In this document: piece after piece, positions 3,440 to 59,966 of the stretch
How positions within the stretch are numbered: the first letter of the stretch is position 1
How the letters are laid out: each line of letters begins with the position of its first letter
NCBI GenBank assembly: GCA_038997165.1
Contig: JAWBAK010000002.1
Span: 21,542-85,541 of the forward strand
DNA from: Candidatus Aenigmatarchaeota archaeon
Lineage (GTDB): Archaea > Aenigmatarchaeota > Aenigmatarchaeia > CG10238-14 > SpSt-28
DNA length: 64,000 nucleotides
Direction of reading: 5' to 3'
Program-made: the position numbers and the translations under genes
The notes under the pieces: model-generated
Database searches by the model: none
The model's input: the letters and a program-made list of their open reading frames with translations, nothing else
Told to the model about the DNA's origin: nothing

Positions 3440-3904
3440 ATGAAATCAAAAGCTCAAGCAGCTTTAGAGTTTTTAATGACATATGGTTGGGCAATATTGC
3501 TAGTAATAGTAGTAGTAGGAGCACTTTATGCAACAGGGATGCTTAAGCCATGTAGATGGGTAGGATTACAAGCAAAGGAATTTCCACTAAGTGAGGTAAG
3601 AGTAGTACCAATAAGATTAACAAAAAATGATTTAGTATTTGAAGTTTATTATCAACAAGCAGGTAATGCTGAATATGTAAGTGTTTCAATTTCAGGAACA
3701 GCAGATGGAAAATCTGTAACTATAGGTAATATAACAAATACTACCTATTCATTTAGTTCCACAAGCCCAGTAACAATTACAGTATCTCTTTCAGAATTAA
3801 GTGGTGGAGAATGTGCGGATTTTGATATAACAATAGAATATATAAAACCAGGAGCAACAGCAACGAGCAAAGTTAGTGGAAAAATAACAGGACCTGTAAG
3901 TTAA
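3440..3904 (+). CDS. Archaeal type IV pilin with class III signal peptide
   Basis: MKSKA/QAALEFLMTYGWAILLVIVVVGAL, a typical DPANN/euryarchaeal pilin N-terminus. Confidence 0.85.
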   Translation: MKSKAQAALEFLMTYGWAILLVIVVVGALYATGMLKPCRWVGLQAKEFPLSEVRVVPIRLTKNDLVFEVYYQQAGNAEYVSVSISGTADGKSVTIGNITNTTYSFSSTSPVTITVSLSELSGGECADFDITIEYIKPGATATSKVSGKITGPVS

Positions 3905-9725: not shown

Positions 9726-9851
9726 ATGGAACACGCTTCAATTAAAACTGCTATTTTTATTGGTATTGCAATTTTAATAATTTTATTTTTCATAATAATA
9801 GGTATTTACTATTTTAAAATTTTATCAACGCAAGTAGCTATTACCCCATAA
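9726..9851 (+). CDS. Micro-pilin-like peptide 1 (41 aa, not in ORF track)
   Basis: MEHASIKTAIFIGIAILIILFFIIIGIYYFKILSTQVAITP. Confidence 0.65.
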   Translation: MEHASIKTAIFIGIAILIILFFIIIGIYYFKILSTQVAITP

Positions 9852-9853
9852 AA

Positions 9854-10030
9854 ATGCCTATAGAAATATCAACAGAATTGCTTTATATATTAATTTTTTT
9901 CTTGATAATTGTAGCAGTAATATTAACTTTTATTTTTTCTGGTTTCGATATCAATAGAATGCAAGAAAGTATTTCAAGTTTTTGGGATAGTGTAGATAGA
10001 TTTGCTAAGAAAATATTTGGAGAAAAATAA
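9854..10030 (+). CDS. Micro-pilin-like peptide 2 (58 aa, not in ORF track)
   Basis: MPIEISTELLYILIFFLIIVAVILTFIFSGFDINRMQESISSFWDSVDRFAKKIFGEK. Confidence 0.7.
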   Translation: MPIEISTELLYILIFFLIIVAVILTFIFSGFDINRMQESISSFWDSVDRFAKKIFGEK

Positions 10031-10032
10031 TT

Positions 10033-10218
10033 ATGGAAGTAAATTTTTTGATCCTAATAATTCTAGGTATTATAATTTTTTCAATTATTTTAATTGTAAT
10101 ATTTTCTATGATTTGGCCTTCGAAGTTTTCTACATTTTTAAAAGAAGCATGTTTATTAACAGTTGGAAAATTTTTTGCACAACCATATATATGTGAAGCT
10201 TTTAGAGTAGCAGAATGA
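10033..10218 (+). CDS. Micro-pilin-like peptide 3 (61 aa, Cys pair)
   Basis: N-terminal hydrophobic helix, then EACLLTVG...ICE. Confidence 0.7.
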   Translation: MEVNFLILIILGIIIFSIILIVIFSMIWPSKFSTFLKEACLLTVGKFFAQPYICEAFRVAE

Positions 10219-10406
10219 TTCCGATAAGAACTCTTATAATAATTTTTTTAATAATTATTGCAATTATATTTTTAATTTCGATTATCTTTGCATTTTTTAA
10301 GGGTGGAGGAGTAGCTCAAGTTTTTTATGAATTTTGCAAAATAACTATTGGCAATATTCCATTTATTGGAGAGGGTGTTTGCGAAACTTTAATAAAAGAG
10401 ATATAA
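10215..10406 (+). CDS. Micro-pilin-like peptide 4 (63 aa, Cys pair)
   Basis: N-terminal hydrophobic helix, then EFCKITIG...VCE; ATGA overlap with peptide 3. Confidence 0.7.
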   Translation: MIPIRTLIIIFLIIIAIIFLISIIFAFFKGGGVAQVFYEFCKITIGNIPFIGEGVCETLIKEI

Positions 10407-10417
10407 AAAAATAATTT

Positions 10418-10579
10418 ATGGAGCAAACGATTTGGATAATAATTCTTATAGTTATTGCAATTCTTTCGTTTATTGTAATATTGAGCATAATATCTTTAGC
10501 AAGAGAAGGTGGAATGAGAAGTTTAGGAGATTTGTTTAATTTATCTAAATTTTTGGAAATTGTTGGAATAAAGAAATGA
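10418..10579 (+). CDS. Micro-pilin-like peptide 5 (53 aa, not in ORF track)
   Basis: MEQTIWIIILIVIAILSFIVILSIISLAREGGMRSLGDLFNLSKFLEIVGIKK. Confidence 0.7.
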   Translation: MEQTIWIIILIVIAILSFIVILSIISLAREGGMRSLGDLFNLSKFLEIVGIKK

Positions 10580-10728
10580 TAGAGGATGAATTATGGATAG
10601 TTTTAGGAATTATTTTATTAATAATAGTTGGAATTTTAATTTATCTAGCTATAACTAATCCAAAATTTCAAGAATTGATAAAGAATATGATATGGAATCT
10701 CAAAATTCCAAAACCTTGGAAAAAATAA
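10576..10728 (+). CDS. Micro-pilin-like peptide 6 (50 aa, not in ORF track)
   Basis: MIEDELWIVLGIILLIIVGILIYLAITNPKFQELIKNMIWNLKIPKPWKK; ATGA overlap. Confidence 0.7.
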   Translation: MIEDELWIVLGIILLIIVGILIYLAITNPKFQELIKNMIWNLKIPKPWKK

Positions 10729-10729
10729 T

Positions 10730-10855
10730 ATGCAAATACCAATTAAAATAGTAATTATTATAATAATTTTAATAATTTTAATTACTTTTGCAATCTTTTT
10801 TGCAACTTTTTTAAAATCTTCTATTGCTAATATTTTATCTCAAATATTTGGTTAA
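10730..10855 (+). CDS. Micro-pilin-like peptide 7 (41 aa, not in ORF track)
   Basis: MQIPIKIVIIIIILIILITFAIFFATFLKSSIANILSQIFG; its stop overlaps the convergent platform gene's stop. Confidence 0.65.
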   Translation: MQIPIKIVIIIIILIILITFAIFFATFLKSSIANILSQIFG

Positions 10856-12846
10856 ACTTGAACTATTGTTTCTATCATTGGAGTTAATATTAGTGAACTA
10901 AAGAGAACTGTTAATATATATAATATTAGTGATATTATCAATGTTTTCGAAAGAAAAGAAAGAAAATTATATCTTTCTAATCCACTTTCTAAACCGACAA
11001 TTAATAAACTTGAAATTATTATCATTTCAACCAAATAAATACCTAATGAAAAAGTTATAGATCCAAAAGAAATTGAACTTACTGTAGATGCAGAAATAAA
11101 TGGAATACCAGTTAAAGGTAAAGCTTCTGTTGATTCCTGAGTTGGAAGTTCTCCAATACTAAAGAATACTTTAATAATTAGAGATAATAGAATAATTACT
11201 AATGAAATTCCAGTTCCAATTATAATTGGCATTAAGAATGTTATTATAAATTTTAGATTATTTACGTTATCACTTATTAATTCTTCAATCTTTGCTTGAA
11301 GTTTAAAAAGGTTAGATAAATATTCAGAAATTATTATCATAGTATCTCCAGCAAATCTATATCCTTTTTTATAACTTTCGATTATAATTTCAAAAGAATT
11401 TTTTATAATACTTGATGGATATATTTTTATTATTTTTTCTATTGATTCTTTTAAATTTCCACTATAGGATAATATTGATAACAATTTTTCAAATAATTTT
11501 CCAATTTCAAATTTTTTATATCTTTCAATTCCTTTATTAATTGCAATCTCTAAAGGATTTCCAGCTCTTAAATAATAACCTGTTTGATACAATACTGTTG
11601 GAAATTCGCTTTCTATTTTTTCAATAATTTTTCTTTTTAATAAAATATTTCTTAATGCAAAAATTAAAATTAGTGAGATTGGAACAAACAATAAAAATAA
11701 TGATGAAATTGCAAGAAAAACTAATGTAAAATTATCTCTTAATAATTCCTCACACTCTTCTTTACTTAATGTCAAATCTTTTGGTTTTGTTTTAAATTTT
11801 GTATTTGCCCATTCTACACATTTTTCAAAATTATAATTTAGTGAAATAAAATTTGGAAGAGTTAAAGAGGAAAGAATTAATGATATTAAAATTCCAACAA
11901 AAATTAAATTAATTTTAAAGTTAGAAAATTTTATTTCTAAAGGATTTTCTATAAGAAGAAAGGAAATTGTTAATGGTCTAGAAGTTATTAAAGTTATTAT
12001 TACTAGAAATAAAATTATTGGTAAAATTACATTGAAAACTATTACTAAAGTTGTGAAAGAAAAAATTTGAGGGAAAAAAATAGAAAATAGTGGTAAAATA
12101 GTTAAAGAAAGTAAAGGCAAAATTACACCTAATCCTAAAATAATTGTTGATGGTAATTTTAAACTTCTCGCATATTTTTCCATTCTTTGAAAATTTTCTT
12201 CATGCATTACTCTTATCGCTTCTTTTATTAAATTTTCTGAAGAATATGGATTTTCACTATATGCTATCAATAATTTTAATGCTTCGCAAAATTCTTTCGC
12301 TTCTTTATACCATCTTTCGATTATTTCATTTAAACCTTCTTTAATTGTAGTTTCTCCAACTAAAAATTTAGCTAAAATTCTTTTAAAATCTTTTCCAATT
12401 TCACCACTTAAATTACTCGCAACTAAAACAACAGCTCTTTCTAAATTTGGAACTTGTTTTAAAGAAATACTCATATATATAATTGCATGCATCATTTCGC
12501 TAGAGGCAAAATTTCTAATTAGTTTAGCTTTAAGAAATGGATAATAATATATTAAAAATGAAATTAAGGATAATAATATAAAAAAAATAAAAGATATTGA
12601 GAATCCTAATGAAAAAGCTAATATTGCAATTCCTATTATTCCAAAAAGAAAAATTAGAATTGCTGCAGAAAAATTTGAAGCTGGAGGTATTCTTAATCTA
12701 CAAAATTTATTAACTTCATTATATAACTCTTCTTCTTCTTTTGGAATTTTAATTTTTATTATTTGAAAACTAAAATTACAAAGTAATTCGTAAAAAGAAA
12801 GTTTTTTGGATTTTTTATATTCTTCAATAATTTGGTTTACATCCAT
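10852..12846 (-). CDS. Type IV pilus/T2SS membrane platform protein (TadC/GspF/ArlJ-like, two T2SSF domains)
   Basis: Polytopic, with two cytoplasmic repeats (SLKQVPNLERAV...; IESEFPTVLYQTGYYLRAGNPLE) and ERMEKYARSLKLP. Confidence 0.75.
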   Translation of the reverse strand: MDVNQIIEEYKKSKKLSFYELLCNFSFQIIKIKIPKEEEELYNEVNKFCRLRIPPASNFSAAILIFLFGIIGIAILAFSLGFSISFIFFILLSLISFLIYYYPFLKAKLIRNFASSEMMHAIIYMSISLKQVPNLERAVVLVASNLSGEIGKDFKRILAKFLVGETTIKEGLNEIIERWYKEAKEFCEALKLLIAYSENPYSSENLIKEAIRVMHEENFQRMEKYARSLKLPSTIILGLGVILPLLSLTILPLFSIFFPQIFSFTTLVIVFNVILPIILFLVIITLITSRPLTISFLLIENPLEIKFSNFKINLIFVGILISLILSSLTLPNFISLNYNFEKCVEWANTKFKTKPKDLTLSKEECEELLRDNFTLVFLAISSLFLLFVPISLILIFALRNILLKRKIIEKIESEFPTVLYQTGYYLRAGNPLEIAINKGIERYKKFEIGKLFEKLLSILSYSGNLKESIEKIIKIYPSSIIKNSFEIIIESYKKGYRFAGDTMIIISEYLSNLFKLQAKIEELISDNVNNLKFIITFLMPIIIGTGISLVIILLSLIIKVFFSIGELPTQESTEALPLTGIPFISASTVSSISFGSITFSLGIYLVEMIIISSLLIVGLESGLERYNFLSFLSKTLIISLILYILTVLFSSLILTPMIETIVQV

Positions 12847-12881: not shown

Positions 12882-15587
12882 ATGAAATTATTAGAAGAAG
12901 TTGCAATAAGATTTTTAATAGGTATATTTATTGCATCTCTTATAGGTTTTTTATTTTGGTGGTTAGTTATTCATAATGAAACAGATAGAATTGTTGAAAG
13001 AAATTTTCAAAAATTTTATTCTGCATTAGATGAAGCATGTTCTAGAAGATCTACAATAAATAATCCTACAAAAGTTTATGTAGAAATTCCTCAAAAAAGA
13101 TTTCAAAATCCATTCGAAGCAGGAATAAATTGGTTAAAAGAAAAATTAGGAATTCCAGTTCCATTTACTGCTTTTCAAGATCCATATTATAATTTTCATT
13201 GGGAATTTTTTCCGCCAGAACCACCATATACATTTGGACAAGGTATTCCAGAATCTTTAGCTGCATTTTTTATTCCATGGAGCGAAGATTTACCTTGGAG
13301 TTCTAATTTAATATTAACTATGGCTTTTAATGCATATGCTTTGGGATTAGATATGTTTGAAGCAGTAAAGCAACTTGAAAAAGCAAAATCTAAAGCTTAT
13401 TTATCTATAAAACACAAAATGTCTAATTTTGGGAAAAAAATTCTTAATAATTTCGATGAAATAAAAATAATTGTTAAAGCGGTAAATGAAATGGAAGAAT
13501 ATATTAAAAAAGTTGGAAACTATGTTATTAGAGTAAAAGGTACTGCAATAAAAATTGCAGATGTTAGTGGAAAAATTATTCATGAAATTAAATTTATATC
13601 TAAAGTAACCACAATGTATGCATTATTTTGTCTAGCAATAGAAGATAAAACTTTAGGAGAATGTTTTACTGAAGGAGTAATTTTTGGAGTAGGTGCAGAT
13701 GTAGGTAAATTAATAATGAAAAATGTTGTTTTTCCTCGTATAAAGAAAAAATTAGAAATTTATTATTCAATTACTGTTGGAAAAATTAAAAAAGGTTTTT
13801 CAGAATTTTTAGAGTATGTTTCTGACGAAGTAAAATCGATAAAATATAAATTTCTTGGAATGGAAAATATTGTTGCTGAAAATATAGATGAAATAAATAA
13901 ATTAACCGATGACATTAAAAATCTTGTAGATGATGCCAAAAAATTATTAAATGAGGGAAAAAATTCTGAAGCTCTTAGCAAAATAAATGAAGCAAAAGGA
14001 AAATTAAAGGCAATTTCTTCATTAATTGAAGATACTTCTAAAAAAGCACCACCAGACTACTTTTCGGCTTTATTCTTTACACAAATTGAAATTGAAAAAC
14101 TACAAGATGAAATAAATGATATAATAAAGAGATGTCCTGAAGATTTAATAAAAGATATTTCAAAAGGTTTTGTTGAACTAGATTCTCTAGTTAAATCTAC
14201 AGAAGAGTTACACGATGATATTCATACAAAATCTACAAAAAAAGTTTTAGAGAGAAAAGGATTTAATTTTGAGTATGATGAAAAATTAAAAAGAAATGTA
14301 TATGTATTAACAGAAGAAAGTAATAAAGATTTATTTAATGAATTTAAAGAAGCAATAGAAGCTAGAAAAGCGATGGGAGAAACAATTTATAGTTATGGAG
14401 ATTTTAAATTTCAATATGATGAAAAAGGAAACTTAATAAAAGTTATTTACGATCCATTTGATCCAGATAGCATTACAAATACTATAAAAGAAGGTATTTT
14501 GGGTTATCCAAAAAAATTTTTGGCATATTTAGAAGAAAAGGCATTTATTCATAATAAATTAGTAGATGGAGATGCTGTTGCTAAAGTATTAGAAGATATG
14601 AAAGATGATCTTCAAAGAGATGAAAACTTAAGAAAAAGATTATTAGAAGCATTTAAAAAAATAGGACATGAAATTGATGAAGATGAATTAATTTATAGAA
14701 TTGACGATACTATAAGAAAGTATAAAGCTGGAGAAAATTTAGTATTAGTTGTAGAAAAAAATAGTGAATTAGGAAAACTCTTTGATAAATTACCAAGCGA
14801 CATTTCTTCACAAGATCTTTCACATTATATTAGAAAAGCAATTTATGATGCTATAAAACAAGGTGATGATACTGAATTAAAAAATTTATATGGGTTGATA
14901 AATGGAAAAACTTTAAGAATTAAAGAAGATATGGAAATATTTTTTAGAAGAGGTGTTATAGGATATGCTGCCTTAAGAGCTATTGATTTATACACACCTT
15001 TAGGAGCAAGTTGGTGGGATAAATATATTTCTTACTATGGTTATGAAGGTCAAAAAATTCCTGTAGGATGTCAAACTCAATGTGATGAAGGAAAAATTTG
15101 TTTGCAGTTAGGAGCATGCATTAGACAATTTGATTTACCCGAAAGCTGTCAAAAAATTGGTATAAAAGATGTAAAAATAAAAAGAAATAGTATTGTTGCA
15201 AATGATCCAAGATTTTATTTAGTTAGTCCATGCTATGCTGAATTAGAAATTTTTATTGATAATTCTGATGCAATACTATTTATTCTTCCAAAAATAGATA
15301 AAAATAGGTTAAATGAACCAAATTATTGTTATGCAACAGAGAATTTTGTTAATTGGTACATAGGTACTTATATTGCTCAATATACAACTAGATGTGTGGG
15401 AGCAATAGGTTGCGCTATACTAACTGGTGGTCTTGGAGCTATAGATGCTGTTTTGGCATGTTTATTTGGAGCTGCAGGAGGTGTTTGTGGAGTTGTTGTA
15501 GATTTAATAGATTTAGCGTTTTCATTTTTAAAAGAATCTACTTTTATTTGGCCAACAGTTTATCAAACTTATCCTTGGTTAGCATGA
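12882..15587 (+). CDS. Large pilin-anchored protein (901 aa): coiled coil, Cys-rich domain, Gly-rich hydrophobic C-terminus
   Basis: N-terminal TM helix, long helical middle, clustered Cys, C-terminal CVGAIGCAILTGGLGAIDAVLACLFGAAGGVCG. Confidence 0.6.
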   Translation: MKLLEEVAIRFLIGIFIASLIGFLFWWLVIHNETDRIVERNFQKFYSALDEACSRRSTINNPTKVYVEIPQKRFQNPFEAGINWLKEKLGIPVPFTAFQDPYYNFHWEFFPPEPPYTFGQGIPESLAAFFIPWSEDLPWSSNLILTMAFNAYALGLDMFEAVKQLEKAKSKAYLSIKHKMSNFGKKILNNFDEIKIIVKAVNEMEEYIKKVGNYVIRVKGTAIKIADVSGKIIHEIKFISKVTTMYALFCLAIEDKTLGECFTEGVIFGVGADVGKLIMKNVVFPRIKKKLEIYYSITVGKIKKGFSEFLEYVSDEVKSIKYKFLGMENIVAENIDEINKLTDDIKNLVDDAKKLLNEGKNSEALSKINEAKGKLKAISSLIEDTSKKAPPDYFSALFFTQIEIEKLQDEINDIIKRCPEDLIKDISKGFVELDSLVKSTEELHDDIHTKSTKKVLERKGFNFEYDEKLKRNVYVLTEESNKDLFNEFKEAIEARKAMGETIYSYGDFKFQYDEKGNLIKVIYDPFDPDSITNTIKEGILGYPKKFLAYLEEKAFIHNKLVDGDAVAKVLEDMKDDLQRDENLRKRLLEAFKKIGHEIDEDELIYRIDDTIRKYKAGENLVLVVEKNSELGKLFDKLPSDISSQDLSHYIRKAIYDAIKQGDDTELKNLYGLINGKTLRIKEDMEIFFRRGVIGYAALRAIDLYTPLGASWWDKYISYYGYEGQKIPVGCQTQCDEGKICLQLGACIRQFDLPESCQKIGIKDVKIKRNSIVANDPRFYLVSPCYAELEIFIDNSDAILFILPKIDKNRLNEPNYCYATENFVNWYIGTYIAQYTTRCVGAIGCAILTGGLGAIDAVLACLFGAAGGVCGVVVDLIDLAFSFLKESTFIWPTVYQTYPWLA

Positions 15588-16003
15588 TCAAAATAAAAAA
15601 ATTAAAATTATCTGCATTTATAACTTATTTAGTTTTATTTTTTTCAATGATTTTTGTTATAATTTTTTTATATTTAGGAATTAACATTCTTTTGATAAAT
15701 ATTTATAAAAACAATTTTTTTATTTCAAAAAGTACTTCTGAATTTCTTTCTGCAATTATGAATTCTTTATTTTCTTCTACAAATAATATTACTATAGAAA
15801 TTACATTTCCAAAAGAAGAAATGGAAATATATTTTTTTGATGAGAATATAACTGTAAAGAAAGGAAAAGAATTTTTTTCTTCAAAAATTTTTAAACCAAG
15901 TTATATTAATTTTAATGTTTCAAATAATGTTATAAAAACAACATCGTTTTATAATACAAAAATTCTAATAATAAAAGTAAACGATGAAATAAAAATAATA
16001 TGA
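15584..16003 (+). CDS. Pilin-like membrane-anchored protein (139 aa)
   Basis: Start at the ATGA overlap (15584); basic leader plus hydrophobic helix. The ORF-track extension to 15392 is spurious. Confidence 0.6.
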   Translation: MIKIKKLKLSAFITYLVLFFSMIFVIIFLYLGINILLINIYKNNFFISKSTSEFLSAIMNSLFSSTNNITIEITFPKEEMEIYFFDENITVKKGKEFFSSKIFKPSYINFNVSNNVIKTTSFYNTKILIIKVNDEIKII

Positions 16004-16395
16004 AATTGCAAATTTCATTTATTCCAGAATCAATGTTAGATGTTTTAACTTTAATAATTGTAATTTCTATGACATTTGGAATGTATATTTTATATACAGA
16101 ATATAAATTAATTTTAAAAAGAGATGAAAATTTAGATTTTCAAAATTATAATTTTGCTCAAGTTTTTATTGGAGATAAATGTATACTTTATAATAATATT
16201 AGCAAAGGAATTTTAGATTATAATAAAATAAAAAATAAACAAAGTTGTTTAAATTTAGAAAAAAATATAAGCATTATTTTAAATTCGGAAAAAATTGTTT
16301 ATAATAACGATTGCGATTTTTCTAATACAAAAGTTATAATTCCGATAATAGTTTTTAAAGAAAGTTTTCAAGAAGCAAAATTAATAATATGTTAA
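16000..16395 (+). CDS. Pilin-like protein
   Basis: MKLQISF...hydrophobic helix, 4 Cys; ATGA-coupled. Confidence 0.6.
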   Translation: MKLQISFIPESMLDVLTLIIVISMTFGMYILYTEYKLILKRDENLDFQNYNFAQVFIGDKCILYNNISKGILDYNKIKNKQSCLNLEKNISIILNSEKIVYNNDCDFSNTKVIIPIIVFKESFQEAKLIIC

Positions 16396-16784
16396 TTCCA
16401 AAAATAATTACAACATTTTTAACATTAATTTTTTCAATTATAGCTTTTTCTTTTGTTTATTTTTTATTGCAAAATTTACCAAAAGCAAAAGTAGAAATAC
16501 AATATAAATTAAGAGAGGAAAATCCTTTTTCTTCTCATCTATGTCAAGTATTTTTAAGTTCAGATGAAATAAAAGAACTAATTATAAAAACAATTAAAAA
16601 AGAAAATATTGAAAATTCTAAAGCATTAATTTTAGATAGGCTTTCTAATTTAATTGAAGATAGAGGATTTGAAATAGTAATTTCAAACGAAAGTATAAAA
16701 AAAGGAGCTTTATCGTATGAAGATATATATTCATGCTACTTTTTTTATAATAAAAAATTGTATGAAATAATAATAAAAATATGA
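16389..16784 (+). CDS. Pilin-like protein
   Basis: N-terminal hydrophobic helix, Cys pair, overlapping operon structure. Confidence 0.55.
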   Translation: MLIPKIITTFLTLIFSIIAFSFVYFLLQNLPKAKVEIQYKLREENPFSSHLCQVFLSSDEIKELIIKTIKKENIENSKALILDRLSNLIEDRGFEIVISNESIKKGALSYEDIYSCYFFYNKKLYEIIIKI

Positions 16785-17149
16785 AAACATTAATTGGAAA
16801 TTTAATATTATTTTTATTACCTTTAGTACTTTTTATAATTGCTTTTTATTTAACGGCAGGTATTTTAAGTAGAGAAATAAGTGTTATAGATATTTCTTCT
16901 AAAATTTTTAATGTAATAAATGAAGCTGAAATTTATAAACAACAAATAAGAAATATTACGTTAGAAAAACTAAAAGAAAATAATAATTTAAAAGAATTTT
17001 CATTTAGTGGATATTATACTTTTTTCAAAATTTCAATAATTGAAAGAGATAATTCTCAAATAAAAATAGAAGTTTTTGGATATCCAAAAGAGGAAATAAT
17101 TGGTATAAGACTGATTATTCATTATATCGATGAAATAAAATTATGGTAA
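16781..17149 (+). CDS. Pilin-like protein
   Basis: N-terminal hydrophobic helix followed by an amphipathic helix and beta strands. Confidence 0.55.
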   Translation: MKTLIGNLILFLLPLVLFIIAFYLTAGILSREISVIDISSKIFNVINEAEIYKQQIRNITLEKLKENNNLKEFSFSGYYTFFKISIIERDNSQIKIEVFGYPKEEIIGIRLIIHYIDEIKLW

Positions 17150-18351
17150 ACGAACTCTTAATATTTTTATTGATTATTTTTATAGTTATATCTGTAATTA
17201 CTTATTTTATTATCTCTACAATAACTAAAGTAGAAATTAAAGAATATGTTCCAAGAATTATTTTTTCGAGAGATGCTTTTTTAGATATTAATTTTCTTTT
17301 TTCCGATTTTGATGGAAAATCTTCTGAATACAATTATGCATTTTACATTCAAAATAATTTTTTAAACACATTAAATTTAAATATTTTTTCAGAATTTTTA
17401 ATTTTAGATGAAAATGTAAAAATTTCTTTATATAAAGAAGAGTTTTCTGATTTATTAGCTTCTAATGTTAAAAAGAGATATGATATTTCATTTAAAAATA
17501 TTTTTGATAATTCAAAGATTAGCGGATTAAATTTTTGTGAAGAGGAGAGAAAAGCTATTTTAGGCTGTAAATATGAATGTTGTAAAGGAGATAATATAAA
17601 TGATGGAATTTGTTGGAAAGATTGCAAAATTTATAAATTAGATCTTTCTGAGAAAAAAAGAAATCTTTATTGTCAAATTTTTCCAATTATTTATACTTCA
17701 ATAAACTATTCGGCTATTATAAATGGAACTGTTGAAATTAGTAAAAATACTTATGAAGATAGAATTAAATGGAATGTAAGAAAATCGCCAATTAATATTT
17801 TTGTAAGACCATCTCCAATACCATATAATAATCTTTTACCTTTAATGCTTACTTTTGAAATAGAGGGGGAAAATGTGTTTCTAAGAAAGTTAAGGCTAGA
17901 AATTATAAATTATTCTATTGAAATTGAAACTTTTTTTGAGAAAAAGATAGAAAGTTTAGAAGCATCACAAATTTGCGAAATAGAAGTAAATAGATTTATT
18001 AATGGAAAAGTATATCTTGGAAAAGAAAAGAATTGTACTTTTGAACCTTTAAACATTACAGTTAAAAGAATTTTAAAAGATAGAGTTGAAGAAAAAATAG
18101 CAACCAAAAATGAAGATATAAACAAATTAATAAATTCTGTTTGTAAAGAATATATTTCTGATGGAAAAATAGACTATGAAAACTGTGCAAAAGAATTAAA
18201 TAAAAGAGAATATAATATTTGTAGTTTATATAGTGATTTAGAAATTTGTAAAATTGGAGAAGAAAAGTTAAATAAAATAATTATTCTTATTTCAGCTGAA
18301 ATTGAAAAGAGAGAAGAATATAGAAAAAAATTAATACCAACTTTTTGTTAA
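17143..18351 (+). CDS. Membrane-anchored Cys-rich exported protein
   Basis: N-terminal TM helix and many clustered Cys; last gene of the operon. Confidence 0.55.
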   Translation: MVNELLIFLLIIFIVISVITYFIISTITKVEIKEYVPRIIFSRDAFLDINFLFSDFDGKSSEYNYAFYIQNNFLNTLNLNIFSEFLILDENVKISLYKEEFSDLLASNVKKRYDISFKNIFDNSKISGLNFCEEERKAILGCKYECCKGDNINDGICWKDCKIYKLDLSEKKRNLYCQIFPIIYTSINYSAIINGTVEISKNTYEDRIKWNVRKSPINIFVRPSPIPYNNLLPLMLTFEIEGENVFLRKLRLEIINYSIEIETFFEKKIESLEASQICEIEVNRFINGKVYLGKEKNCTFEPLNITVKRILKDRVEEKIATKNEDINKLINSVCKEYISDGKIDYENCAKELNKREYNICSLYSDLEICKIGEEKLNKIIILISAEIEKREEYRKKLIPTFC

Positions 18352-18711
18352 TTACTTTATTTTACAGCCACAAAGCTTTACTAAACAATCTTTAAAAGAT
18401 CTTAAACCCAAATAATTACATATATTTTTGTAACTTGCAAAATCATCTCCATCTTTTACACCAATATCTTTATTCTTGATTTTTGATGATAAATCATCTT
18501 CTGAAATTCCAAGATCATATGGACTACTTACTTCAATTGCTAAACATTTTGTTTTATCAACTATTTCCGAACAAAATATACTTTTTATATTTTCTCTTTT
18601 CATCCAATCTAAAGGGCTACTTCCTATTCCTAGCCAAGATAAAACAAAAAGTGCTGTTACTATTAAAATTACAATTATTATTATTATTTCTAGTGTTGTT
18701 AAAACTTTCAT
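18352..18711 (-). CDS. Pilin-like protein with a C-terminal Cys cluster
   Basis: MKVLTTLEIIIIIVILIVTALFVL...C...C...C...CLVKLCGC. Confidence 0.65.
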   Translation of the reverse strand: MKVLTTLEIIIIIVILIVTALFVLSWLGIGSSPLDWMKRENIKSIFCSEIVDKTKCLAIEVSSPYDLGISEDDLSSKIKNKDIGVKDGDDFASYKNICNYLGLRSFKDCLVKLCGCKIK

Positions 18712-32535: not shown

Positions 32536-33933
32536 ATGAACAATTTCAATCTAATTTCAGCATATATCGCAACAATTATAATTCTTGTTATAACTATTGG
32601 AATCGGAGCTGTTCTTTATTTATATTTTAGTGGATATATTTCACAATTAACTTCTGAAACAGAAGAAGCAACAACGATAAAATCTATTATTGAATGTTCA
32701 AAAGCAAGAATTGATAGCTATGCGTATATAACTACTACTACTTCAAAAGATTTTAAATATGGAGATTTTAACTATAGAATTCCAATAACAATAACAGAAA
32801 GAAGCGGAAATACTTTAATTGACTACCAAGTCTTAGTAGTAATAAATACACAAAATTTAATTTCTCAAGGCAAAATGAGAAATGATTGTGGAGATATTAG
32901 ATTTACCGATAGTGATGGAAAAACTTTATTGAATTATTGGATTGAACCGAATACATGTAATACCGAAAATACGAGAATTTGGGTTAAAGTTCCATACATT
33001 CCTGCTAGTTCAACAAAAACAATTTATTTATACTATGGAAACCCAGAAGCAACATCTTTAAGCAATGGAACAGCTACATTTATTGCTTTTGATTGGAAAT
33101 TTGATGGACCAATCTCAGCAGGAACATATCATACTTGCGCATTATTATCTAATGGCTCTATCATGTGCTGGGGAAGTAATTGGGCTGGTCAACTAGGTCT
33201 CGGCTACACATCATATTCAGAACAAACCCCCAAACAAGTTATTGGTATAGACAATGCAATAGCAATATCAACAGGAGCTTTTCACACCTGCGCATTACTC
33301 TCTAATGGTTCTATCATGTGCTGGGGAGATAACACTGCCGGTCAATTAGGTCTCGGATATACAAGTGATCCTATACCCTACCCACAGCAAGTTATTGGTA
33401 TAGATAATGCCATTGTAATTTCATCAGGAGCTTATCACACCTGCGCCTTACTATCTAATGGTTCTATCATGTGCTGGGGATATAACGGACATGGCCAACT
33501 AGGTCTTGGCTACACAATAGACTATGCACCAATCCCACAACAAACACTAAACTACAACTTAGGTGGTATGTATTTCAAAACCAACGATATTTACACACCA
33601 CATACTCCAAACGATATTTATTTTGTTAGGGTTTATGTAGAAATAGAACCAACAGTTTCTTTAGGAAGTGAAGAAACTTCACCAATAATAAAACTAACTA
33701 TGATAAATTTAGGTATTGAGTTAGGTAAAAGATATTTAATAAAATTAATCTATGAAGATGGAAAAGTAATTGTTAGAAATATAACTCTCGATAAAAATCT
33801 TAGCTCTGGAGAATCAAAAGAAATTTATTTAACAGATTTATCAAAAGGAAGAATTAGGAAAATAGAAATTTATAGTATAGATGTTTGTCCAAATATGTTA
33901 GTTGGAATTAGAAGTGTAAATATTGAGGTTTAA
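32536..33933 (+). CDS. Pilin-type N-terminus + DUF2341 + three RCC1-like repeats (putative adhesin pilin)
   Basis: ISAYIATIIILVITIG; YRIPITI...DCGDIRFTD...IWVKVP...YYGNP; 3x G.HTCALLSNGSIMCWG.N..GQLG. Confidence 0.85.
   Translation: MNNFNLISAYIATIIILVITIGIGAVLYLYFSGYISQLTSETEEATTIKSIIECSKARIDSYAYITTTTSKDFKYGDFNYRIPITITERSGNTLIDYQVLVVINTQNLISQGKMRNDCGDIRFTDSDGKTLLNYWIEPNTCNTENTRIWVKVPYIPASSTKTIYLYYGNPEATSLSNGTATFIAFDWKFDGPISAGTYHTCALLSNGSIMCWGSNWAGQLGLGYTSYSEQTPKQVIGIDNAIAISTGAFHTCALLSNGSIMCWGDNTAGQLGLGYTSDPIPYPQQVIGIDNAIVISSGAYHTCALLSNGSIMCWGYNGHGQLGLGYTIDYAPIPQQTLNYNLGGMYFKTNDIYTPHTPNDIYFVRVYVEIEPTVSLGSEETSPIIKLTMINLGIELGKRYLIKLIYEDGKVIVRNITLDKNLSSGESKEIYLTDLSKGRIRKIEIYSIDVCPNMLVGIRSVNIEV
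33121..33560 (+). repeat. 153-bp tandem repeats encoding RCC1-like blades
   Basis: Units start at 33121, 33274 and 33427 with high nucleotide identity. Confidence 0.9.
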
Positions 33934-45935: not shown

Positions 45936-47768
45936 TTAAATAAATGCCTCAATTTTCTCCTTTTTAACTATAGCTTTTAGAATTTCTTTTCCAAATTCAC
46001 TTTCTTTATTTAATTTTATTGTGTTATCTTTTCCAATATTTGCTGAAAACAAAAAGTTTCCACTAATGTAAAATTTCACTGCTTTACCAACTAAGTTTTC
46101 GAAAAATTTAAATACTATAGAATTTCCAGTTTCAGAAATTAGGAAATCAACTTTTTTTCCTAAAGATGGTGTTTTTGGTTCTACATCTATGGAAATTCCC
46201 AAAATCTCTTCTAATTTTTTTATTGTTTTTCCTTCTTTTCCAATAATTTTTGGAAGAACTTCGTTATCAACTTTTATTAATACTTTATTTTCGTTTAATA
46301 TTTCTATTTCAGCATTCTTATCAAACCTATCAATAAATTCTTTAATTCTTTGCTTAGCTAATTCATATATAGCATTTTTTCTTTTTTCTTCTTCTATTGG
46401 AACAACAACGTTTTCTTCTCCAAAGGTATAAATTTCATATTCTAACTTACCACTTTCAAAATCTCTAACTTCAACTACAGGCCTAGCTAAGTCTTCTTCA
46501 GTCATACCTGTAGGAACTTTAACTTTAATTTCTAAGGTTAAAATTTTTTTAATTTCTCCATCTTTTATAAAGATTATTGTATCAACTATATGTGGTAACA
46601 TTCCTAATTCATATCTACTTAAAAATCTTTGAATAGCATCTATTGCATCGCTTGCATGTACAACTCCTATCATTCCTATACCAGCTAATCTTAAATCAGC
46701 AAATATTTCAAAATCTTTTGTTTTTCTTATTTCATCAAAAGCAACATAATCTGGTCTAACTAATAATAAAATATCTGCAGTTTTTTCAAATGAATTTTCT
46801 AGAGGACCATATTGAGTAACTTCCTTAGGAACTTGTAAATCTCTAGGACTTTCTAAAGTTTTTACTATTTTTCCTTTTTTTAGGTAAAATTCTATTAAAG
46901 AGCTACAAAAAGTAGATTTGCCAGATCCAGGAGGTCCACAAATTATTATTCCTTCTGCTTTTTTTTCTAATCTTTCTATTAATTTTTTACTAGGTTTATA
47001 ATCTTCCAAACTTAATTTAACTATTGGTTTTACTATTGTAATTTCATATGAACTAGAAAATGGTGGCTTAGCAATAGCAATTCTATAATTTCTCATTTGA
47101 ATTACAATAGCATTTTCTCTTACTATTTCAAAGTAGGAATTTTCATCTCTTCTTGCAAATTCTATAATTTCTTTTATCATTTCTTCAATTTCTTCTCTAC
47201 TCATTACTTCTTCTCTTAATTTAACTAAACTCCAATTTCCCGGTTTTCCTTTTTTTGCATATGGACTAACATTTTCTTTTAAATGAATACTTAATGTTTC
47301 TTCGTCGAAAAAACTTTCAAATTTTAATTTTTCTTTAAGAGAAATTTCTGGAGCAATATAAATTACTTTTGTACCTTCTGCTTCAGCTACTAGTGCTTGA
47401 ATATAATCAGAAGTTAATAAATATGCATTTTCTCTTTTTGCAACATCTCTAATTAATGCATCAATTCTACCACCTCTAGCTAATTTAATATCTTCTAGAC
47501 TAGGTCTTTCTCCTACAAATTTAATTAATATATTTTTTGCTTCAGCCTTTTCTCTAATTTCCTTTATTTCGTTTAATCCAATAATTCCTTCTTTTCTTCC
47601 TTTCGATGCTTGATTTTGTAATTCATCCAAAGAAGGAATTGGAATAATTATTTCTTTTAAATTTTTAAATTTATCAAAATTTTGACTTACAAATTTATCA
47701 ATAATTATAGAAGTATCTAAGCAAATCTTTTCAACAATTTCAATTTTTTTAATAATTTCGTCTTCCAT
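45936..47768 (-). CDS. PIN-domain ATPase with KH domain (PINA family)
   Basis: PIN (LDTS), GPPGSGKST, ESPRDL, DEIR, GVVHA, KH (IIGKEGKTI). Confidence 0.93.
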   Translation of the reverse strand: MEDEIIKKIEIVEKICLDTSIIIDKFVSQNFDKFKNLKEIIIPIPSLDELQNQASKGRKEGIIGLNEIKEIREKAEAKNILIKFVGERPSLEDIKLARGGRIDALIRDVAKRENAYLLTSDYIQALVAEAEGTKVIYIAPEISLKEKLKFESFFDEETLSIHLKENVSPYAKKGKPGNWSLVKLREEVMSREEIEEMIKEIIEFARRDENSYFEIVRENAIVIQMRNYRIAIAKPPFSSSYEITIVKPIVKLSLEDYKPSKKLIERLEKKAEGIIICGPPGSGKSTFCSSLIEFYLKKGKIVKTLESPRDLQVPKEVTQYGPLENSFEKTADILLLVRPDYVAFDEIRKTKDFEIFADLRLAGIGMIGVVHASDAIDAIQRFLSRYELGMLPHIVDTIIFIKDGEIKKILTLEIKVKVPTGMTEEDLARPVVEVRDFESGKLEYEIYTFGEENVVVPIEEEKRKNAIYELAKQRIKEFIDRFDKNAEIEILNENKVLIKVDNEVLPKIIGKEGKTIKKLEEILGISIDVEPKTPSLGKKVDFLISETGNSIVFKFFENLVGKAVKFYISGNFLFSANIGKDNTIKLNKESEFGKEILKAIVKKEKIEAFI

Positions 47769-59159: not shown

Positions 59160-59966
59160 ATGGATATTTTTGATATATTGAAATTAATAGTTGCAAAAAC
59201 GTTTTTTACTAAAGCAAGCATTGATGATATTAGAACTACAGAAATAAAAGATATAGAAGTTTACTTTTTTATTTCTTTGCTAATAATTCTAAATTTAATT
59301 CAAATTCTTTATTATAAAAATTTTAACATTTTTTATAATCTTTTAATTAATTTAGCAATATTTGGTTTTTTTGGTTTCTTTCTATATTTTAGTGGTCAAT
59401 GGGGTTTGGGAGACTCTTTTTTATTATTATCTTTAGGATTGTTAAATATCTTTAAAAATATATTTGAAATTTTTAATTGGTTATTAATAACTTTTTCAGT
59501 TGGAATATTTTTTATATTTTTCTATTCAGTTCTTTTTATATTTTTATCAAAAAAATATGAAAAATTAAACTTTTTCTCAAAAATTTCTCTTTTCATTTCT
59601 TTGTTTTTTTCATTTCTTTCTTTATATTTTATGTTTAGTAAAATGTTATTTAATTTTTTGATATCCTTTTTAATTTTTCTTTATATTTCAATTCCTTTTT
59701 TAAAAAATGTAAGAAATTTAATGATTAAAAGAATTCCAATAAATAAATTAAAAGAGGGAGATGTTCTATTAGATTTTAAAGTTTGGAGAGGAATAACTAA
59801 AAAAGAAATTGAAGAGTTAAAAAGAAAAAAAATAAAATATGTTTATATTAAGGAAGGTGTAAGATATGCTCCAACGTTTTTATTTACTCTAATTTTAATA
59901 ATTTTAGAAAAAATTTTTGGAATTATTATTTTTGAGTTCTTTCCAAAAGATTTCTTTCTAATTTAA
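59160..59966 (+). CDS. A24-family prepilin/prearchaellin peptidase
   Basis: ASIDD.RT.EI (first Asp), WGLGD (GxGD), C-terminal LKEGDVL...EGVRYAP.F. Confidence 0.8.
   Translation: MDIFDILKLIVAKTFFTKASIDDIRTTEIKDIEVYFFISLLIILNLIQILYYKNFNIFYNLLINLAIFGFFGFFLYFSGQWGLGDSFLLLSLGLLNIFKNIFEIFNWLLITFSVGIFFIFFYSVLFIFLSKKYEKLNFFSKISLFISLFFSFLSLYFMFSKMLFNFLISFLIFLYISIPFLKNVRNLMIKRIPINKLKEGDVLLDFKVWRGITKKEIEELKRKKIKYVYIKEGVRYAPTFLFTLILIILEKIFGIIIFEFFPKDFFLI

Follow-up and report, generated by a model that had tools for sequence, protein, structure and literature searches.

A conserved array of seven leaderless micro-pilin-like genes beside tadC in an Aenigmatarchaeota archaeon

Seven consecutive small genes next to a gene for a TadC-like platform protein in an Aenigmatarchaeota archaeon encode proteins that are not class III pilins by the leader test, but that by descent, context and anatomy are most likely type IV pilin subunits. 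We consider it probable that they derive from class III micro-pilins, have been conserved without a leader and assemble, without cleavage by a peptidase, into a thin, all-helical segment of a type IV filament. The genes are located on the plus strand at positions 9726-10855 of the window, the whole stretch of 64,000 nucleotides that was analysed, and their products have 41 to 63 residues (Table 1). The genome (652 kb, 24% GC; G000 in the following, with related genomes numbered likewise) is that of an Aenigmatarchaeota member, in line with the DPANN host that had been inferred from the letters of the DNA alone.

Table 1 Positions of the putative pilin-related features of the window
Feature	Positions	Strand	Remarks
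Candidate TATA-like element TTTATAA	9695..9701	+	25-31 nt ahead of the ATG of ORF1
ORF1, 41-aa putative micro-pilin	9726..9851	+	position 1 of the ancestral operon; Met = mature +1
ORF2, 58-aa putative micro-pilin, amphipathic tail	9854..10030	+	MKG/MRG-led orthologues; Met = -2
ORF3, 61-aa putative micro-pilin, invariant Cys pair	10033..10218	+	predicted all-helical
ORF4, 63-aa putative micro-pilin, Cys pair	10215..10406	+	old paralogue of ORF3
ORF5, 53-aa putative micro-pilin, one N-x-S sequon	10418..10579	+	nearly all orthologues seen are leaderless
ORF6, 50-aa putative micro-pilin, acidic N terminus	10576..10728	+	all orthologues seen are leaderless
ORF7, 41-aa putative micro-pilin	10730..10855	+	Met = mature +1 of MKG/MKA-led orthologues
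664-aa TadC/T2SSF-like platform protein	10852..12846	-	PF00482, E 5e-5, 23.7 bits, below the cut-off of 25.2
Six larger N-anchored pilin-like genes (901, 138, 131, 131, 122 and 402 aa)	12882..18351	+	distal part of the ancestral operon; leaders eroded
119-aa Cys-rich pilin-like gene	18352..18711	-	likely position 8 of the ancestral array
A24 prepilin peptidase (PibD/EppA-like)	59160..59966	+	both catalytic Asp motifs intact

A sequence-only reading of the window had described seven back-to-back reading frames, and we find them in the same places, with gaps of 2, 2, -4, 11, -4 and 1 nt from ORF1 to ORF7; it was also right that most are missing from the ORF track, since just two of the seven clear the cut-off of 60 aa. 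Each has a single N-terminal hydrophobic segment, which begins at residue 6-9 and reaches a maximal KD19 of 3.3-3.7. Genome-wide, a KD19 of at least 3.0 is found in 14 ORFs of 30-100 aa, and seven of these are the contiguous array. The reading had placed an amphipathic helix behind the hydrophobic one. The hydrophobic segment is present in all seven, but the tail is significantly amphipathic compared to shuffles in two only, ORF2 (p 0.012) and ORF7 (p 0.032; n = 7), and the tail of ORF1, just 14 residues long, forms no amphipathic helix. In a Pfam scan of the seven ORFs and 12 orthologues nothing scored above cut-off, and neither Class_IIIsignal nor the Epd pilin family gave a match; the best match among the seven was a weak one of ORF7 to Flp1_like (PF16982, E 0.013, 15.4 bits versus a cut-off of 33.5). 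ORF3, the only one modelled, is predicted to be all helix (pLDDT 82). As expected of a short helix, a PDB sequence search, Foldseek and VIA-align (best Z 4.7) were uninformative for ORF3; the best score in the ESM Atlas, 0.82, was in the range of chance. The TTTATAA ahead of ORF1 is a candidate TATA-like element, judged by the spacing usual for such elements. A similar element, TTAATAA, precedes ORF1 in G001 and G003 and is not clear in G004.

The seven genes had been called unrelated at the DNA level. This stands insofar as DNA self-matches are short and of low complexity, which also rules out a recent duplication in this genome, but an old paralogy links ORF3 to ORF4 (ORF3 profile against ORF4, E 3.6e-7). 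A profile-profile comparison of ORF1 and ORF3 gave no usable alignment. Positions 2-4 of the array begin nearly identically in G102, G111 and G136, and these positions originated by tandem duplication.

Purifying selection had been set beforehand as a test of the array, and the ORFs are indeed constrained. Three relatives from the same genus that have the same seven-gene block served as partners, and the pooled dN/dS of the seven joined ORFs was 0.16 against G001 (Fisher p 7e-14), 0.20 against G004 and 0.37 against G003; the mismatches are concentrated at third codon positions. Taken singly, ORF1 has a dN/dS of 0.06 against G001. ORF2 differs from its G001 counterpart by 0 synonymous and 4 non-synonymous changes, the sole comparison without a synonymous change, and has a dN/dS of 0.16 against G004 and 0.53 against G003. 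In distant comparisons dN is below dS for every ORF, and tadC itself has a dN/dS of 0.03 against G001. The seven ORFs are real genes. That they are spurious products of AT-rich, stop-poor DNA is ruled out by these ratios and by their recurrence behind tadC relative to control windows (see below). Gene callers had been expected to miss most of them, but six of the seven exact sequences are already in a public protein collection. The ORFs are thus unannotated rather than uncalled; cluster members of ORF2, ORF3 and ORF6 are annotated as hypothetical proteins. Contigs from four hot-spring DNA runs span the array region, and some of them have single-base deletions at 9850 and 10405, both at stop codons.

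Relatives of the platform gene were found in all 41 genomes searched, and the ATPase that precedes tadC in these relatives retrieved 80 loci; most of the phylum-named records are Aenigmatarchaeota. The relatives carry on one strand, in this order, a gene for a VirB11/CpaF-like ATPase, tadC, a row of micro-genes and larger pilin-like genes, and the position-1 gene, the orthologue of ORF1, overlaps or abuts the stop codon of tadC. Syntenic arrays of small ORFs in relatives, which the sequence-only reading had proposed to look for, are frequent. We counted hydrophobic ORFs with lengths of 33-105 aa in the 1.7 kb that follow tadC, wherever there was room of at least 1.2 kb, and found two or more in 57 of 72 loci, or in 49 of 64 after removal of 8 near-duplicates, in a survey that comprised the 80 loci retrieved with the ATPase, 27 loci of the searched genomes and this window and is therefore made up of best hits and their kin rather than a random sample. 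Ten of the 64 non-redundant loci have no micro-ORFs behind tadC. Control windows upstream of the ATPase (n = 52) never contained two; 46 had none and 6 had one. With one profile per position, made from the four arrays of the genus, the colinear order is recovered in G016, G013, G035, G036 and G111. Positions 1, 3, 5 and 6 map clearly in most of these, and positions 2, 4 and 7 with small margins; short arrays from other families cannot be matched to the seven profiles. The ancestral order of the operon is ATPase, tadC, P1 to P7/8 and the large pilin-like genes.

As had been noted from the DNA alone, the array converges on the TadC-like gene, and ORF7 and tadC have the TTAA of their stop codons in common. 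The block is inverted relative to tadC in this genome and in G001, G003 and G004, but G005 and G006, which belong to this genus too, lack the inversion; the convergence is therefore a recent local inversion and not the ancestral layout. The orthologue of the operon ATPase is on another contig of this genome (G000:C1:465376-467604, 785 bits), and array, tadC and ATPase are no longer co-transcribed here. As to the larger pilin-like genes on the other side of tadC, the orthologue of the 901-aa gene comes after the array in G013, G035, G036 and G111. The gene at 18352-18711 is likely the eighth array gene, stranded by the inversion. A different rearrangement is seen in G005, where the array is split and about 8 kb separate positions 5-8 from the rest (L206 = G005:C2:83597-86686). 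tRNA genes flank the locus in two relatives, just upstream of ORF1 in G003 (L118:10553-10648) and past gene 8 in G001 (L117:2032-2106), and are possible points of rearrangement.

Further pilin-like genes occur elsewhere in the genome. Alongside a second TadC paralogue (G000:C1:327394-340601) there are some ten N-anchored pilin-like genes on both strands, again with eroded leaders. A 465-aa pilin-like protein with an eroded leader (32536-33933) is inserted among ribosomal protein genes; by eye, we take it to have a DUF2341-like region and RCC1-like repeats. A 610-aa protein with PIN domain, ATPase and KH parts (45936-47768) matches PF00437 (at G000:C2:68161-68532) and is presumably similar to the branch-migration ATPase PINA rather than to a pilus motor. 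A pair of genes for a 157-aa protein and a Cys-rich secreted protein of 380/419 aa is present twice on the contig (61095-62686 and G000:C2:1306-3014), with near-identical N termini and different bodies.

The lack of a class III leader that had been claimed for the seven proteins holds for this genome: a K/R-G/A motif precedes the hydrophobic segment in none of the seven ORFs, and there is none upstream of any of the ATGs in frame, which rules out hidden upstream leaders or wrong starts. The MEHA of ORF1 was rejected as a cleavage site because its A lacks conservation and the start Met falls on +1. Hydrophilic leaders with K/R-G/A are present in orthologues of ORF1, ORF2, ORF3, ORF4 and ORF7. 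By a regular expression, which visibly misplaces some leaders or calls them falsely, a K/R-G/A/S leader is found on 91 of the 191 micro-ORFs, mostly as MKG or MKKG. Of the 49 arrays, 34 combine led and leaderless genes, 7 have a leader on every gene and 8 have none. MKG is a plausible leader, since PibD is reported to cleave leaders down to 3 residues (PMC10117864). The idea of a separate, undescribed family is not borne out; class III micro-pilins occur as a set throughout the phylum, and the seven stand at its leaderless extreme.

How a leader may have been lost is best seen in the family of ORF3, which comprises 49 clusters. The 48 homologues fetched start with K/R-G (18), K-A (3) or K/R-S (13) or have no site (14), and can be arranged in a series of erosion from MKG over MKA, MKS and MKI/MIA/MPL to ME. 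In ungapped comparison with led orthologues, the start Met corresponds to the mature +1 in ORF1 (4/4) and ORF7 (5/6), to -2 in ORF2 (4/6), to +4 in ORF3 (4/4) and to +3 in ORF4 (2/2); by eye, the Met of ORF2 is at +1 in G003. The impression that the N termini look already mature was thus well founded: relative to the mature end, the five ORFs that have led orthologues start between -2 and +4. All seven also share the trait of type IV pilins that some 21 hydrophobic residues begin at the mature N terminus. Judged from these alignments, the seven genes descend from class III micro-pilins.

In a TadC tree (IQ-TREE) the long arrays form one clade (support 100/100; placement of G006 86/86). The basal arrays of G136, G102, G111 and G036 have leaders at every position except 5 and 6, and those of G081, G035, G013 and G016 have none at positions 1, 5 and 6. 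G006 has one leader left, on its last gene, and the blocks of G003, G004, G000 and G001 have none on any of the seven genes. Positions 5 and 6 became leaderless early, and ORF5 is leaderless even where other genes of the array keep their leaders. The displaced position 5 of G005 begins with a leader-like MKCG, though the basal arrays have no leader there. Apparently, leaders were lost stepwise along the TadC gene tree, though not strictly in one direction, an order that is to be read as that of a gene tree on which transfer or paralogy has left its mark, since the tree mixes the families f1, f2 and f5. The long-array clade unites members of these three families and excludes their own relatives, which suggests that the whole pilus locus underwent transfer or sorting.

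Loss of the peptidase is ruled out as the cause of leader loss. The A24 prepilin peptidase is intact in this genome and was found in 40 of the 41 genomes searched; the exception, G017, is 82% complete. Some pilin-like genes of this genome, for example that at 3440-3904, still have good leaders. Others are changed at the residue before the cleavage site: in 8 of 12 K-x-Q starts, position -1 is L, I or F, and among orthologues at a second locus most genes of this genus have K-L/I/V, as opposed to mostly K-A/G/S elsewhere. Starts with K-L-Q, K-I-Q or K-F-Q are seen at G000:C1:52787-53982 and 430367-435724 and at 16000-16395 of the window; other genera have K-G/A/S-Q. This genus-wide change at -1 means either blocked cleavage or a relaxed peptidase, and the seven ORFs are without a site either way. 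In the gene at 18352-18711, position -1 is V here and A, A, G and G in G001, G003, G004 and G005; the change from A to V arose after the split from G001. The peptidase itself reads TTEI-K/R-D next to its first catalytic Asp in G000 to G005. Of the 13 other aligned genomes, 12 have Pro at this site and one, G008, has Ser; one short sequence has Asp. A link between this change and a changed specificity is possible.

The descent of the seven proteins leaves room for different functions. The leader normally fixes the N terminus of a pilin inside (PMC4471445), and it is conceivable, although in our opinion unlikely, that the seven are pilin-derived membrane residents that form a collar, a pore or an assembly scaffold around TadC, perhaps flipped to N-out/C-in after loss of the leader. 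The flanks of leaderless members, neutral to acidic at the N-terminal side (net charge -0.37) and mildly basic at the C-terminal side (+0.32), weakly favour such an N-out orientation, and a flipped insertion has an analogy in the leaderless coat protein of phage Pf3. ORF5 and ORF6 end with KK, and their positions were leaderless early. The erosion of Gly/Ala at -1, frequent among pilin-like genes of this genus, also looks as if uncleaved anchoring were tolerated. However, leaderless members resemble led ones in the charge of the C-flank (p 0.72 for K/R, 0.31 for net charge), and thus show no adaptation to a flip. The tails have retained even numbers of Cys (0, 2 or 4 in 111 of the 117 ORFs without a leader and in 106 of the 112 with one), which would fit external disulfides and favour C-out; thermophiles form cytoplasmic disulfides, too. 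A start Met exactly at +1, as in ORF1 and ORF7, would be needless for a membrane resident, and orthologues with intact leaders hold the same positions. An oligosaccharyltransferase is present. N-glycosylation sequons show no overall enrichment (18 seen, 21 expected); a weak excess is confined to the clade that has no leaders at all (25 ORFs; 9 versus 4.6 expected, p 0.035).

The seven could also be interchangeable major pilins, duplicated in tandem for host range or virus evasion, each of which is able to form a homopolymeric, Flp-like pilus. The near-identical starts of positions 2-4, the match of ORF3 to ORF4 and the size of the arrays, which varies from 2 to 8 genes across the surveyed loci, would agree with this, and in Haloferax any of six pilins is described as sufficient for pili (PMC4858521). 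We nevertheless regard it as improbable: each position keeps its own signature and its place in the order across three families, dN is below dS for every ORF in distant comparisons, unlike in a shuffled variable cassette, and the tight coupling of the genes suggests joint expression. That the leaders were lost by decay, AT-biased drift eroding a pilus system that falls out of use, is very improbable, because the low GC content, the operon broken by the inversion, the relocated ATPase and the late change at -1 in the gene at 18352-18711 would fit, but the strong purifying selection on all seven genes and on tadC largely refutes it, and the order is kept in four members of the genus, mixed arrays are the norm in the phylum and 40 of 41 genomes retain an intact peptidase.

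If the seven proteins are leaderless filament subunits, as we prefer to think, each of them would insert via its N-terminal helix with the tail outside and the Cys pairs as disulfides. The ATPase encoded on the other contig and TadC would extract the subunits in a fixed order, and these would pack like headless Tad/Flp pilins. Since each position is kept separately, the subunits are likely non-redundant minor subunits with one place each, possibly with one major subunit among them. The thin segment may prime the pilus or carry the larger, adhesin-like and Cys-rich subunits encoded at 12882-18351. In view of the known lifestyle of DPANN archaea, the likely use would be adhesion to the host.

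The closest known counterparts are the Tad/Flp (type IVc) pilins of the tad pilus of Caulobacter crescentus, described as headless proteins of 40-60 residues in which an N-terminal hydrophobic helix runs into a polar helix, served by a CpaF/VirB11-like ATPase and a TadC-like platform and forming a pilus with archaeal-type packing (PMC10710030). The same source reports TcpA with Met1 at the mature N terminus, so Met is tolerated at +1 (PMC10710030). Flp pilins, as described there, differ from the array proteins by a cleaved leader and the flp motif (Thr2, Glu5, Tyr6), which by inspection is absent from the seven ORFs; moreover, the array consists of seven distinct paralogues, with no match to the Flp family of Pfam over the cut-off. 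Among archaea, ATPase and TadC genes with divergent, unannotated pilin-like genes are described for the cluster-2 CCP-CpaF-TadC loci of DPANN (Hamm et al. 2024, PMC11291902) and for the dark-matter pilin islands of DPANN, whose pilins were inferred from signal peptides (Makarova et al. 2019, PMC6393860), and Aenigmarchaeota are named among the carriers of such loci (PMC11291902/PMC6393860). The CpaF-like ATPase beside TadC is a trait that we find in relatives, but the two are apart in this genome. Unlike the array, these loci are not said, in the portions of the two texts that we consulted, to contain subunits of 40-60 aa or to have lost leaders. Epd pili of Methanococcus maripaludis (T4F system 1) resemble the array in their small major pilins of about 70 aa, several minor pilins that are each needed and a dedicated A24 peptidase (PMC4390842, PMC4858521). 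Epd pilins, however, are described as EppA substrates that are cleaved before N-glycosylation (PMC4390842), system 1 is reported to have two platform genes (PMC13705601) in place of the single 664-aa platform found here, and the seven ORFs have no Pfam match to pilins of the DUF361/arCOG06620 type that characterise that system. Nanoarchaea without prepilin peptidase or cognate pilins have been noted (PMC4858521, PMC4471445), and a preprint mentions two archaellin-like proteins of Nanobdella in which no signal peptide was detected (bioRxiv 10.1101/2023.10.27.564410). Our literature search, outside which most subscription papers lay, returned nothing on naturally leaderless pilins or on such arrays. 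DPANN pilus loci with divergent pilins are already known; what seems new here is the natural loss of the leader.

Cleavage of the leader by a prepilin peptidase is listed as one of the four defining parts of type IV filaments (PMC13705601). It is tempting to speculate, and we do so tentatively, that these filaments can dispense with prepilin processing and that the Aenigmatarchaeota are in the middle of this transition, with the core of the host-contact pilus of this genus built from ready-mature subunits. Gene by gene, leaders would shrink to MKG, the Gly at -1 would be lost and the start Met would end up on the mature +1. The graded series of led and leaderless orthologues makes the role of the leader in topology, membrane retention and timing of glycosylation directly testable. 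Subunits that lie directly behind tadC in 49 of 64 loci also differ from the DPANN pilins of a 2026 census, which are reported as scattered away from ATPase and platform (PMC13705601). The micro-pilins are too short, too divergent or too leaderless for profile and signal-peptide screens, and the seven proteins are concrete candidates for the host-contact apparatus of DPANN archaea. If assembly is indeed free of processing, this would be the route by which nanoarchaea that reportedly have no prepilin peptidase can still own pilus motors, and signal-peptide screens would overlook a large share of the DPANN pilins.
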